A stretch of DNA of 6,151 nt from an uncultured Erysipelotrichaceae bacterium (GTDB taxonomy: Bacteria; Bacillota_I; Bacilli_A; Erysipelotrichales; Erysipelotrichaceae), in contig CAYNZZ010000025.1 of the NCBI GenBank assembly GCA_964401865.1, forward strand, positions 1 through 6,151. Direction: 5' to 3'. Each line of letters begins with the position of its first letter. Position 1 is the first letter of the stretch. Positions 341 to 6,151 of this stretch are shown here, in pieces. Under the pieces are notes generated by a model. The model ran no database searches and was not told where the DNA came from. It worked only from the letters and a program-made list of their open reading frames with translations. Made by a program: the position numbers and the translations under genes.

Positions 341-577
341 TTGCTTAGTAGGTATTCAGCAGTTATTAAGAAAGGCGAATCATTTGACATTCCTATTTAT
401 TCCTTACCTTCTGGTTATGAAGAGAAAGATTTAGCATATGAAATAGCTAATCGTGAAATTTGCACTCTGGATGGCAAAACCATTAACGCTATCAAGGCAG
501 GAGTTACAGTAATTAAAATTAAAACGAATGATAATAAATTTGAAGCTAGTTTTAATTTATTAGTTAGTGATGGATAA
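341..577 (+). CDS. Bacterial Ig-like (Big_2-type) domain protein, or the C-terminal part of a disrupted one. The open frame actually extends back to 170.
   Basis: The track ORF starts at TTG 341. The C-terminal pattern ICTLDGKTINAIKAGVTVIKIKTNDNKFEASFNLLV fits the Big_2 signature (v..V...G.vtAvkaGtatItat..dgk.a...v.V). The domain appears to begin upstream of the TTG, around PISSDKILLSRY. There is no ATG, GTG or TTG in frame between 170 and 340, and no Shine-Dalgarno before 341, so the start is uncertain. Confidence 0.5.
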   Translation: MLSRYSAVIKKGESFDIPIYSLPSGYEEKDLAYEIANREICTLDGKTINAIKAGVTVIKIKTNDNKFEASFNLLVSDG

Positions 578-1166
578 CATGTTTATTGTTTATGTTGATA
601 ATATAAAAATTGATTATTTCAATTTGGATGACGTTAAAAAGACAATAGATTATGAAGGGTTGTATATTTATGCAGAAAATGGTAAATGGTTTCTAAATGC
701 AGAAAAATGTACTATAGATGGTGATAAAAAAGATAAGGTTGAACTTATGCATAGACATTATGTAATAAAAAGCGAGGATATTTTCTATGATCGTTACCTA
801 TATGTGTATGGCGATAAGAATGGCTTTGATAATTACTCGATAACTGAAAATAAAGATTTTTTAATTTCGAATAATGAAAAATCTAATATCGTTATAAAAA
901 ACAACTTATTAAACCAAAAATACTTATTTTTTCATCGCAATGTTCTTCAAACGAACTTAAAACCCATTTTTTTGAATGGGAAGGTTTATAAGCAGGAAAT
1001 GCTTAATGATTTTGACTGTATTGAATGGTATGGAATTAAGTTCTACTATCATAAAAATTTTATTATCATTAATAATTTTGGTGTTACCAATATAAAAGAA
1101 ATAACACCACAATTTGATGATTGCATATATCATCAAAAAAGAAATATAAATAGTTTTATTGGCGGT
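567..1166 (+). other. EssC N-terminal cytoplasmic region with tandem FHA-like modules (aa 1 to about 200)
   Basis: MFIVYVDNIKIDYFNL...YLYVYGDKN, then DFLISNNEKSNIVIKNN...IFLNGKVYKQEMLNDFDCIEWYGIKFYY. The second stretch fits the pattern 'itIG..ndi.i ... vNG ... l..gD.i...g' of EssC/YukBA FHA-type N-domains. Boundaries are approximate. Confidence 0.55.
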
Positions 1167-4452: not shown

Positions 4453-4517
4453 AATGTAAGATTTTATTTTTTGTTGTAGCTATTTCGATGCTATTTACAG
4501 GCATAGTTATATCAGCT
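4449..4517 (+). other. Sec-type signal peptide of the hydrolase
   Basis: MKCKILFFVVAISMLFTGIVISA|EEDV has a basic n-region, a hydrophobic core and an I-S-A cleavage-type motif. There is no lipobox Cys after the h-region. Confidence 0.75.
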
Positions 4518-6151
4518 GAAGAAGATGTATTTTATTTGGTCGAATATGGAAATAATAAAAAAGAAGTAATTGATGAATTTTCAAGTTTTAGTAGTGCATA
4601 TCGTTATTTTCGTAATGTTAAGGATGAATACGATAATTTGGCTATTGTAAGTGATGATAATGTACTGCTTATGGAATATGGAGTTGTCGAATTTAAAACC
4701 GATGATAGTTGTGCTTATACGGTTGAATACGAAGATATAAACAATGGTAAGCAATCGAATTTAAATGGTTGTTATGCAATTGATGGTGCATATATTTCTA
4801 CTTCCAGTAATGCTAGAGATGTTACATTTAAAGTTGCGGGCGCCTATGGAAAAACAAGTATTGAAAATGTAATTTTGCATCCGATTGATAGCTTAGATAT
4901 GCGTTTATCGTCATATATTGTAGTTGATGGAATATTATATCATGAAGTAAAAACACAACTTGTTCAAGATTTTTATTCGACTAGTATATCTTTAGGAGAA
5001 GCACCGGAATATCTTGAAGAAAGTATTGGTTATTTTAGCTATGATGGTCATTATTTTTATAATGATTTTAAAGCTATGATAGATGATTATAACAATGAAG
5101 AAACCGTTAGAGCAATCAATGCAGATTCTCCGTATTATAATTATTATCAGTATCTTCCTCATCGAACTATTACTAATTATAGTTATGAAGAAATAAGAAC
5201 ATATTTTGACGAGATTTTATGTTTTGATCGTAAGTTACAAAAATATGAGGATTTTAATGTGGATAATGCGAATGATGTTGTAAACCAATCGCAGTATTAT
5301 GGTGAACTGCAATCTTTTTTTGAATATCAAAATATTTATGGCGCTAATGCGCTAATGATGCTGTCGATATCAATGAATGAATCGTCATACGGAAAATCTT
5401 TAAATTCTTTTGTGAATAATAATTTATTTGCTCATGCCGCTTTTGATAACGAAGAAGAAAGAAACGCTTCTAGATATAGCGACTTAGAAAAATCTGTATA
5501 TTCACATGCAAAGTATTACATCTCTTCCCGTTTTGCTAATCATCTAAGCTCTGTTTACAATGGCTCTTTTTTTGGCAACAAAGCAAGCGGTATGAATATT
5601 CAATACTCTAACGATCCTTATTGGGGAGAAAAAGCTGCCAGTAATTATTATACTTTAGATAAAACTCTTGGTTCTAAAGATGACAATGCTTATGCACTTG
5701 GGCTGATTTATTATGCTAATTCTTTACCTGTATATCGCGATAGTTCTTTAAGTGAAACAAAGATGACGCTAAGAAATATCAGTGATTTTTCGTTTGTGAT
5801 ATTAGAAGAAAACGATAACTATTACAAAGTTCAATTGGATAGCTCAAATGATAGTGATAATTATACATATAATTTTAATGAATGTGTAGGGTACATAGAG
5901 AAAAATGATATTGATGTCATTATTAATAAAGATGAAATATTAAATAGAGAATATGTAACTATTACTATCGATGCCAATGGCGGAAAGATAAACAATTTTG
6001 ATGAAGTTAGTTTTAATGTTTTGAAGGGGCAAAAACCTTATATCAATTCAATTGATAGAGATGGTTACAAATGGGTAACTTTTGATAGCGAATTAGAAGA
6101 TGCGAATGCAGATAAAAAATATGTTGCCGAATATATTAAAATAGACTCTGT
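4449..6151 (+). CDS. Secreted multidomain peptidoglycan hydrolase, GH73 N-acetylglucosaminidase family (3'-truncated by the window end; at least 567 aa)
   Basis: This ORF is not in the supplied track because it has no stop in the window. I translated it by hand from ATG 4449 to 6149 and found no stop. The ATG overlaps the upstream TGA (ATGA). Its parts are an N-terminal signal peptide, GH73 motifs, an SH3b-like module and a Flg_new repeat, each listed separately. Confidence 0.85.
   Translation, partial: MKCKILFFVVAISMLFTGIVISAEEDVFYLVEYGNNKKEVIDEFSSFSSAYRYFRNVKDEYDNLAIVSDDNVLLMEYGVVEFKTDDSCAYTVEYEDINNGKQSNLNGCYAIDGAYISTSSNARDVTFKVAGAYGKTSIENVILHPIDSLDMRLSSYIVVDGILYHEVKTQLVQDFYSTSISLGEAPEYLEESIGYFSYDGHYFYNDFKAMIDDYNNEETVRAINADSPYYNYYQYLPHRTITNYSYEEIRTYFDEILCFDRKLQKYEDFNVDNANDVVNQSQYYGELQSFFEYQNIYGANALMMLSISMNESSYGKSLNSFVNNNLFAHAAFDNEEERNASRYSDLEKSVYSHAKYYISSRFANHLSSVYNGSFFGNKASGMNIQYSNDPYWGEKAASNYYTLDKTLGSKDDNAYALGLIYYANSLPVYRDSSLSETKMTLRNISDFSFVILEENDNYYKVQLDSSNDSDNYTYNFNECVGYIEKNDIDVIINKDEILNREYVTITIDANGGKINNFDEVSFNVLKGQKPYINSIDRDGYKWVTFDSELEDANADKKYVAEYIKIDS
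5286..5663 (+). other. GH73 (mannosyl-glycoprotein endo-beta-N-acetylglucosaminidase) catalytic domain
   Basis: ALMMLSISMNESSYGKSLNSFVNNNLFAHAAF matches the family pattern A.a.lESgwG.S.la...nNlFGik, with the candidate catalytic Glu codon at 5379..5381 (aa 311). The distal motif IQYSNDPYWGEKAASNYY matches YatDp.Y..ki. Confidence 0.85.
5688..5921 (+). other. SH3b-like cell-wall binding module
   Basis: ANSLPVYRDSSLSETKMTLRNISDFSFVILEENDNYYKVQLD...CVGYIEKNDIDVI fits the SH3_3 pattern 'a..lnVRsgps....vig.l.kg..v.vl.e..gwykV...g..GWv....l'. Tyr replaces the usual Trp at two positions. Confidence 0.5.
5949..6151 (+). repeat. Listeria-Bacteroides repeat (Flg_new type) protein module, first copy; more may follow beyond the window
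   Basis: YVTITIDANGGKINNFDEVSFNVLKGQKPYINSIDRDGYKWVTFDSELEDANADKKYVAEY fits the pattern ytVtFdanGG......v..G.k...P.p.reGYtF.gWy.......f......lyA.w. Confidence 0.6.

Follow-up and report, generated by a model that had tools for sequence, protein, structure and literature searches.

A probable reduced type VII secretion system encoded by a five-gene cassette of Erysipelotrichaceae-type bacteria

The window analysed here is a stretch of 6,151 nucleotides from an uncultured Erysipelotrichaceae bacterium (contig CAYNZZ010000025.1, positions 1 to 6,151), and the element of interest within it is a gene cluster that includes a short membrane ATPase of the EssC type. The window covers the last two thirds of a six-gene operon of a low-GC Bacillota organism and is itself AT-rich (GC content 0.23-0.33). 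Five genes form a conserved unit: two encode WXG100 proteins (WXG100a and WXG100b, hereafter WXGa and WXGb), and the others a lipoprotein, the short EssC-like ATPase and a protein of 61-86 amino acids (aa). The cluster thereby combines an EccC/EssC-type membrane FtsK/SpoIIIE ATPase with a WXG100 gene, the two features that mark a type VII secretion system (T7SS) in the broad sense. The cassette is probably a reduced T7SS, a five-gene variant with no match among the subtypes a-j, and is best read as a compact variant related to T7SSe and T7SSb. A preliminary description of the window, made from its letters alone, had entertained both a rearranged ordinary locus and a reduced EssC-centred module with a different set of partners; the flanks of the cassette, and a gene order that is kept in every related locus recovered, support the latter.

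Contigs of lipoprotein homologues and 22 metagenome loci were screened with phmmer, about 25 cassette loci in all. The order WXGa-WXGb-lipoprotein-ATPase is found in 22 loci, other short contigs show compatible fragments of it, and there is no counter-example. An open reading frame (ORF) of 61-86 aa starts at or across the stop codon of every complete ATPase gene (17/17). In a species whose ATPase (P0002, L011) is 41% identical, the same six genes stand between the same neighbours, the small gene being uncalled in that contig but present at 13641-13895. The four-gene synteny proposed at the outset therefore holds for the lipoprotein, EssC and small-protein genes in every related locus recovered, and breaks down for the fourth member, a GH73 hydrolase gene that is specific to one clade. 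Carriers of the cassette appear in human-gut and rumen metagenomes. Its surroundings differ, consisting of sugar-utilisation genes in one locus (L019), infB-rbfA in a second (L020) and lacZ in a third (L021), and these unlike neighbourhoods indicate that the five genes move as a cassette. All five are under purifying selection, with ratios of non-synonymous to synonymous polymorphism (pN/pS) of 0.00-0.33, the same range as in neighbouring housekeeping genes. As a separate observation, one long-EssC locus (L046 8001-13778, GCA_021771185.1) carries a long EssC (1526 aa), an 85-aa protein and two reverse-strand WXG-like genes between infB and rbfA, and the five-gene cassette of L020 (9414-15769) directly follows rbfA; insertion may have occurred repeatedly in the infB-rbfA neighbourhood.

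The ATPase comprises 1211 aa when read from the GTG at position 567 and 1210 aa from the ATG at 570. Its first designation as EssC-like was sound: it is an FtsK/SpoIIIE membrane ATPase with one Pfam domain (FtsK_SpoIIIE, PF01580, aa 585-756, 4.3e-22), and its best NCBIfam match is TIGR03928, the Firmicutes EssC equivalog (T7_EssCb_Firm), at 282.8 bits, which falls short of the cutoff of 778.4 bits by a wide margin. The best relative in the PDB is Bacillus subtilis YukB (9qks_G, 7.2e-53), over the D1 region only. The protein aligns colinearly with an EssC of 1529 aa (P0007), starting at the FHA region and continuing as far as the C-terminus. Four C-terminal NTPase-like domains (DUF, D1, D2 and D3) are stated for all T7SS subtypes (PMC11217815); the corresponding regions all align colinearly in the short ATPase, with Pfam recognising D1 alone. 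Relative to Bacillus EssC, the shrinkage is spread over DUF, D2 and D3, identity outside D1 is about 10%, and the part that follows D1 measures about 400 aa as against about 610 aa in canonical EssC, i.e. about 200 aa less. The Walker A motif GGTTGSGKS lies at aa 601-609 (window 2367-2393) and the Walker B motif VIDEFAE at aa 716. Walker A occurs only in D1 in 17/17 short ATPases, the D2-/D3-like region having no strict match; since several canonical EssCs also carry one strict Walker A, the single match alone is not diagnostic.

The N-terminal region of the ATPase is FHA-like by alignment and has no Pfam FHA match. In the FHA2 alignment the phosphothreonine-binding motifs GR and SxxH are absent from all 14 aligned short ATPases, while NG is partly kept, the window's ATPase being among those that retain it. 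In TseC the motifs GR, SxxH and NG are kept in 98, 99 and 90% of sequences, respectively, and FHA motifs track the presence of a kinase component (Table S1, PMC11217815). The loss of these residues is consistent with a system that has no kinase/phosphatase/FHA regulatory set. In a quick neighbour-joining tree of D1, built without reference sequences for T7SSc-j, the short ATPases form a clade of their own outside the clade of the long EssCs and the Bacillus T7SSb EssC, and their D1 identity is about 46% to both alike. Every region of the ATPase, including the D2- and D3-like regions, is under purifying selection: in the comparison of L035 with L037, D1 is the most strongly constrained (pN/pS 0.016) and the other regions give 0.06-0.14 (D2-like 0.13, D3-like 0.075). 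In L042 and L043, the most distant cassette members, both the ATPase (1309-1320 aa) and the lipoprotein (713-716 aa) are longer, and these loci may stand midway between the long forms and the short ones.

The WXG100 pair lies outside the window, about 1.3-1.9 kb upstream of it (L001 3869-4168 and 4184-4477, window base 1 being L001 5807), and ends about 1.3 kb before window base 1. The first protein, of 99 aa, matches PF06013 (1.4e-10; 41.7 bits against a cutoff of 27.3), and W-x-G is kept in at least 90% of the WXGa sequences. The second, of 97 aa, is recognised by the 'ESAT-6 family' model NF035934 (110.2 bits, cutoff 100) and matches WXG100 weakly. The preliminary description had found no WXG100 gene, which is right for the window, in which no WXG100-type ORF was noticed among the 15 ORFs of at least 40 aa (the Pfam scan covered the five main products), and wrong for the locus, where the pair stands directly upstream in the same operon. 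The absence is a window-edge effect.

The membrane partners of the well-known systems, on the other hand, do not appear. Within 10 kb on each side of the cassette (L001-L004, L011, L019-L021), Pfam labels include no YukC (PF10140), EssA (PF10661) or EsaA, and likewise no YukD, LXG, kinase or PP2C family. Searches with phmmer using Bacillus EsaA, EssA, YukD and YukC, and using the DUF6382-FHA (TseJ), PP2C and kinase proteins of the long-EssC locus L044, gave no match in about 25 cassette loci. A Bacillus locus (L016) served as positive control and returned WXG100, EssA (87 bits), YukD (51 bits), YukC (432 bits) and a 1501-aa EssC. When 10 kb of flank are included, the genes run HtpG, PPIase, YitT, AI-2E permease, WXG100 (99 aa), the 97-aa protein, ORFs of 504 and 78 aa (one 640-aa ORF in L003), ATPase, 85-aa protein, the 916-aa GH73 protein, RluB-like, NFACT, Gmk, S4 and EzrA, so that the flanks hold only housekeeping genes. 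The early statement that essB, esaA and essA are lacking thus extends to 10 kb on either side of the cluster, and of the canonical essB, esaA, essA and esxA genes that might have adjoined the window, the WXG100 pair is present and the membrane partners were not found.

Ten subtypes, a-j, have been published, T7SSc-j having been described by Garrett, Higginson and Palmer in 2024 (PMC11217815). The original label 'T7SSb-like' is too narrow in this light, as the nearest described relatives by gene content are T7SSe-type clusters (PMC11217815). T7SSe shares with the cassette a pair of non-identical WXG100 genes (TseA, TseA2), a small protein gene beside the ATPase gene, an ATPase with an FHA-type N-terminus and a Sec-exported envelope protein with immunoglobulin-like (Ig-like) domains. 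The link is embodied by L044, which encodes an ATPase with FHA, an 83-aa protein, two WXG100 proteins and a 771-aa Big_2 lipoprotein, and continues with three small genes and genes for DUF6382-FHA, PP2C and a kinase; judged by sequence, it appears to be the T7SSe gene set in most respects, and its A, A2, B-like, C and lipoprotein parts are shared with the cassette. The gene order is different, however, being A-A2-lipoprotein-C-B in the cassette and C-B-A-A2-lipoprotein in L044. Unlike T7SSe, the cassette has no kinase (D, TseD), PP2C/PPM phosphatase (F, TseF) or DUF6382-FHA protein (J, TseJ) within 10 kb and no single-transmembrane proteins H and K, and its ATPase is about 300 aa shorter, is devoid of GR and SxxH and falls in a separate clade. 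TseI has a Sec signal peptide, Ig-like domains and a C-terminal transmembrane (TM) helix (PMC11217815). Compared with TseI as described, the cassette's envelope protein is lipid-anchored at its N-terminus instead of being held by a C-terminal helix; it has a signal peptide with a lipobox, one C-terminal Big_2 domain and no C-terminal TM helix.

T7SSb, as in the Staphylococcus aureus Ess and B. subtilis Yuk/Yue systems, resembles the cassette in the FHA-like N-terminus, two TM helices, DUF and D1 of its ATPase (D1 being about 46% identical to Bacillus EssC), in its WXG100 substrate and in a small protein of about 80 aa. The cassette differs in having two WXG100 genes rather than one and no EssB/YukC pseudokinase, EssA or EsaA/YueB (10 kb each side), and the small gene follows the ATPase gene, whereas in T7SSb it precedes it. 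The B. subtilis core unit is a YukB:YukC:YukD assembly of 1:2:1 stoichiometry in which YukD sits between two parts of YukB, its FHA domains and its DUF (PMC12637312). T7SSg of Acetivibrio and Paenibacillus (PMC11217815) likewise comprises two WXG100 proteins, a ubiquitin-like protein, an ATPase and one further protein, but its fifth component is a DUF5050 beta-propeller where the cassette has a lipoprotein; TsgC has no FHA domains and Tad pilus genes adjoin, while the cassette keeps an FHA-like region and has no Tad genes. T7SSd of Actinomycetota (TsdA, TsdC, TsdD, TsdH, TsdI) also has five components, among them a large Sec-exported envelope protein with Ig-like domains that is proposed to span the wall; it differs in having a kinase, no ubiquitin-like protein and conserved FHA phosphothreonine motifs, and belongs to another phylum. 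No Erysipelotrichaceae genus name occurs in the text or supplements of PMC11217815, and a literature search found no later paper that extends the a-j scheme or describes the cassette.

It could be argued that the cassette is a shuffled part of an ordinary T7SSb or T7SSe whose other machinery genes are encoded elsewhere in the genome, given that the flank reading covers 10 kb on each side and that in L044 homologues of the lipoprotein and small protein sit beside kinase, PP2C and DUF6382-FHA genes, which implies that these parts can work in a larger system. This is unlikely, because the five genes travel as a set and settle in unrelated neighbourhoods where other T7SS genes are absent, the ATPase lies in a separate clade and has lost the phosphothreonine-binding FHA residues that accompany a kinase, and homologues of YukC, EssA, EsaA, TseJ, PP2C and kinase are all wanting in about 25 loci.

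The protein encoded directly after the ATPase gene had been called yukD-like, a label for which Pfam, PDB, hhalign and AlphaFold2 (AF2) give no direct sequence or structure support. The window's 85-aa protein, which the assembly collection records in 43 blocks, finds nothing in Pfam, NCBIfam or the PDB and only itself in a word-index homology search. The Pfam YukD model (PF08817) matches none of 13 family members at E<=10 and none of three bridging relatives, hhalign against one Bacillus YukD returns a probability of 0.1% (0.1-8% over the YukD comparisons), and YukD did not emerge from PDB profile searches based on two alignments of the small protein. The second match in a PDB profile search was 5zmb, an 81-aa 'ubiquitin-like protein' aligned end to end at E 0.14. 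The single-sequence AF2 model is poor (predicted local distance difference test, pLDDT, 52.7); its beta-alpha-beta-beta-alpha-beta order is compatible with a beta-grasp fold, and it has no Foldseek match. The likeness to YukD is supported only by way of homology to the small gene of the T7SSe-like locus. The small genes next to the long EssCs of L044 and L046 are homologous to the cassette's (hidden Markov model (HMM) E 7e-8 and 2e-6; hhalign 92%, E 5.5e-7), and their products in turn align full-length and in register with a mini-profile of YukD and EsaB sequences verified against the PDB (probability 18.7%, E 1.3e-3) and finish with a D-I-x-N-G-x-x-L motif resembling the one in YukD. InterPro similarly fails to recognise the published TseB and TscB (PMC11217815). 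By sequence, the small protein is a probable candidate for a ubiquitin-like cofactor of the TsxB/YukD type. In a further long-EssC locus (L045 7656-12551; EssC of 1516 aa), a small-protein homologue of 108 aa stands upstream instead, with IS110-/IS66-type transposase genes around.

About 30 word-index homologues share 28-53% identity with the lipoprotein of the cassette, and its named relatives, at 38-39% identity, are entries such as 'hypothetical protein [Erysipelotrichaceae bacterium]'. In a profile search of 1.84 billion representatives, more than 120 of the 150 best match over the full length (590-725 aa, E<1e-123), overall match counts being inflated by Big_2 repeat proteins. The family is homologous to the lipoprotein of L044 (E 7.8e-65) and has no DUF5050 match. 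Nearly all full-length members have a lipobox-type cysteine after an N-terminal hydrophobic stretch, and no C-terminal TM helix was found in any of them. The preliminary description had considered the protein upstream of EssC as a partner or a cargo; its own lipoprotein signal peptide speaks for a Sec-exported partner and against a T7 cargo. The Big_2 domain once assigned to it is roughly right: the 135 codons in the window that follow the premature stop match only HL_N-beta, below threshold (23.7 bits, cutoff 27), but Big_2 is matched by 24 of the 31 family members, and Foldseek agrees. Two of the 31 also match an SLH domain (best E 1.2e-5). An AF2 model from 31 sequences (pLDDT 80.1, predicted template-modelling score 0.67) has an N-terminal helical domain (aa 35-133), a large sheet (aa ~240-520) with strands of 15-23 residues and the C-terminal Ig-like domain. 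Foldseek, run against PDB and viral models, recognises only the last of these, through the lambda gpV C-domain (2l04), LigA/LigB and BIG2 proteins (Big_2-CBM56). Upstream of the window, aa 32-134 (L003 4554-4862) appear in the model as three similar helix units, and this helical domain may be a cell-wall-binding module.

In the window's strain the lipoprotein gene is interrupted. Frame 2 is open over 2-577 save for one TAA at 167-169 and is otherwise identical in frame to the single 640-aa ORF of the intact allele (L003 4461-6383). The window shares a T at position 167 with L001, L002 and L004, while L003 and L009 have C there; TTG 341 is the first canonical start after the TAA and opens the 78-aa ORF. 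What had been taken for a Big_2 gene in its own right is, given this exchange of CAA for TAA, the tail of a split 640-aa gene. The polymorphism (L001 5973-5975) lies within one species, and the stop allele comes from different sequencing runs and several independent assemblies. Overall, L001, L002, L004 and L008 differ from the window by 1 base, and L003 and L009 by 40-48 bases. The two alleles of the species give the lipoprotein a pN/pS of 0.27-0.30, the highest of the genes, with differences densest at the 3' end, a pattern compatible with a surface-exposed domain or with a constraint that has relaxed after the stop codon. Window 1-577 alone holds 15 of the 48 differences from L003 (2.6% against ~0.6% elsewhere; pN/pS 0.30); a surface-domain effect, relaxed constraint after the stop or recombination could account for this density. 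As a consequence of the nonsense codon, the secretion system may be impaired in the window's strain.

Whether the whole cluster is being lost and no longer secretes is a different matter, and we regard such decay as improbable. The nonsense codon in four sequences (the window, L001, L002, L004), the lipoprotein pN/pS of 0.27-0.30 between alleles against 0.09-0.10 in another lineage, and the shortening of D2 and D3 by about 200 aa, to the point where they are unrecognisable, would all suit a remnant. All five genes are nevertheless intact in about 20 distinct lineages, purifying selection acts on every ATPase domain, the D2-/D3-like ones included, and the same species holds intact lipoprotein alleles (L003, L009). 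Decay therefore applies at most to the window's strain and not to the cassette.

That the genes form a DNA-translocating FtsK or coupling-protein module of conjugation or cell division, with a surface lipoprotein and a wall hydrolase, is very hard to credit and was rejected: FtsK_SpoIIIE is the only confident Pfam domain of the ATPase, which also matches TraG-D_C and the TraJ ATPase weakly, and wall hydrolases and surface proteins are found in the conjugation modules of Gram-positive bacteria as well, but the best family and structure matches are EssC and YukB rather than FtsK, colinearity with EssC runs through the FHA-like, 2-TM, DUF and D1-D3 regions, the WXG100 pair is always adjacent, and no relaxase, VirB4 or integrase is seen within the 10-kb flanks of housekeeping genes.

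Table 1. Coordinates of the features carried by the window
Feature	Position	Strand	Basis
Upstream lipoprotein fragment, codons ~450-504, ending at premature stop	2-169	+	Frame-2 translation; matches L003 4461-6383
TAA nonsense codon, CAA (Gln505) in other strains	167-169	+	Comparison of L contigs
Last 135 lipoprotein codons, including C-terminal Ig-like (Big_2 / HL_N-beta) domain ~422-553	170-577	+	
Short EssC/TsxC-like membrane ATPase, 1211 aa	567-4202	+	GTG 567 start
ATPase FHA-like N-terminal region, aa 1-~225	567-1240	+	Aligned to FHA1/FHA2 of P0007
ATPase, two predicted TM helices, aa 233-284	1263-1418	+	Hydropathy; matches TM stalk of canonical EssC
ATPase domain D1, Pfam aa 585-756	2319-2834	+	PF01580
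ATPase D2-like and D3-like region, aa 811-1211	2997-4199	+	Alignment to canonical EssC
Small conserved protein, 85 aa	4195-4452	+	Start overlaps EssC stop
GH73 N-acetylglucosaminidase, first 567 of 916 codons	4449-6151 (runs off window end)	+	

The features of the window are collected in Table 1. Every long ORF is on the plus strand, and the layout first reported, a chain of 78-aa (341-577), 1211-aa, 85-aa and 4449-6151+ frames each overlapping the next, was reproduced: the ATPase ORF overlaps both the end of the upstream frame and the 85-aa ORF, whose stop shares an ATGA with the GH73 start. A terminator-like hairpin lies between the AI-2E permease gene and the first WXG100 gene. A promoter scan was uninformative, with fewer matches than in shuffled sequence, and an Rfam scan of the window returned nothing.

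The last gene of the window encodes, as had been stated, a GH73 hydrolase with a Sec signal: PF01832 scores 34.6-36.1 bits against a cutoff of 30.2 (domain 5313-5657), and the hydrophobic N-terminus forms a signal peptide (4449-4517). A NESSYGKS motif, its NESSYG part at aa 308-313, contains Glu311 (5379-5381), which we take to be the putative catalytic residue, YSNDPYW is found at aa 386, and the full-length protein of 916 aa ends in a C-terminal TM anchor. In the window's clade the gene is translationally coupled downstream of the cassette. Only in L001-L012 and L034 does it follow the cassette immediately; in L035-L037 about 2 kb lie between, in what seems to be the same chromosomal neighbourhood. 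No GH73 gene comes after the cassette in L019, L020 or L021, and none was found in L027, L029-L031, L038, L042 and L043. Its absence from most cassette loci rules it out as a core component, and the idea that it belongs to the conserved unit gives way to that of a lineage-specific neighbour. In L035 (15835-17829; also L036 and L037) extra ORFs of 92, 297 and 150 aa lie between the cassette and the GH73 gene, the 150-aa one resembling an IS200-type transposase by eye. At its 3' end the GH73 gene extends ~30 bases into the beginning of the gene for the RluB-like pseudouridine synthase (L001 12975-13005), and as no terminator-like site was found between the two genes, transcription may continue into the housekeeping genes.

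A further non-canonical cluster came to light in L013-L015 (Ruminococcus sp., bovine and other metagenomes; L013 7015-17951). It has 3-4 WXG100-like small genes, a gene for a 622-aa protein and an ATPase split into genes of 1117 and 584 aa, like EccCa/EccCb, with a Ser/Thr kinase, a PT-HINT protein and a SUFU-domain protein nearby.

Several considerations weigh against regarding the cassette as a reduced T7SS. The analysis establishes which genes are present, their order, their conservation, the selection on them and the loss of domains; secretion activity and the role of each part we infer from homology and conservation. The ATPase is far from the cutoff of the EssC equivalog, the D1 tree was a quick one that had no T7SSc-j references, and EssB/EssA/EsaA-type or other partners could be encoded beyond the 10-kb flanks. 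The fold of the small protein is uncertain. The central domain of the lipoprotein has no structural match (Foldseek, PDB and viral models), which leaves position and topology as the only grounds for the role given to the protein, and its gene carries a nonsense codon in the very strain of the window. The more far-reaching proposition that the five genes make up a T7SS subtype that is self-sufficient, has so far escaped classification and is widespread among Erysipelotrichaceae-type bacteria of gut and rumen is accordingly advanced as a tentative one, a serious possibility that stops somewhat short of being likely.

If the cassette is a reduced T7SS, its parts could act together as follows. The ATPase would oligomerise in the membrane and serve as both motor and channel, with the first NTPase domain alone catalytic, and the small protein would play the assembly role of YukD/TsxB on the N-terminus of the ATPase. 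The WXG100 pair would be exported as a heterodimer. The lipid-anchored lipoprotein would be the only extracytoplasmic component, replacing the wall-spanning proteins of the EsaA/TsxI type, and the system would operate without the EssB pseudokinase, EssA, EsaA or the kinase/phosphatase/FHA regulatory set. The membrane-anchored GH73 protein, outside the conserved system, may open peptidoglycan locally in the window's clade. S. aureus recruits a dedicated wall hydrolase, EssH (PMC13059805), a precedent, by analogy, and not a proof, for such a role.

How the T7SSb-type channel forms, and which components it truly requires, has yet to be settled. In B. subtilis, YukB, YukC and YukD are all needed for the core unit (PMC12637312), and each of the ten published subtypes adds different partners (PMC11217815). 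Should the five genes prove self-sufficient, they would constitute the smallest T7SS known. Just one NTPase domain of its ATPase would be at work, next to a ubiquitin-like cofactor and a WXG100 heterodimer, and nothing would stand outside the cytoplasm but a lipid-anchored lipoprotein, rich in beta structure and novel in its fold. They would define a minimal translocon and make the pseudokinase and EsaA-type partners dispensable. A five-gene system under purifying selection, with no pseudokinase, no polytopic partner, a shrunken ATPase and a single wall-facing lipoprotein, would be a natural minimal model suited to reconstitution and structural work. From that perspective, a large lipoprotein family whose named relatives are recorded only as 'hypothetical protein' gains a testable context.

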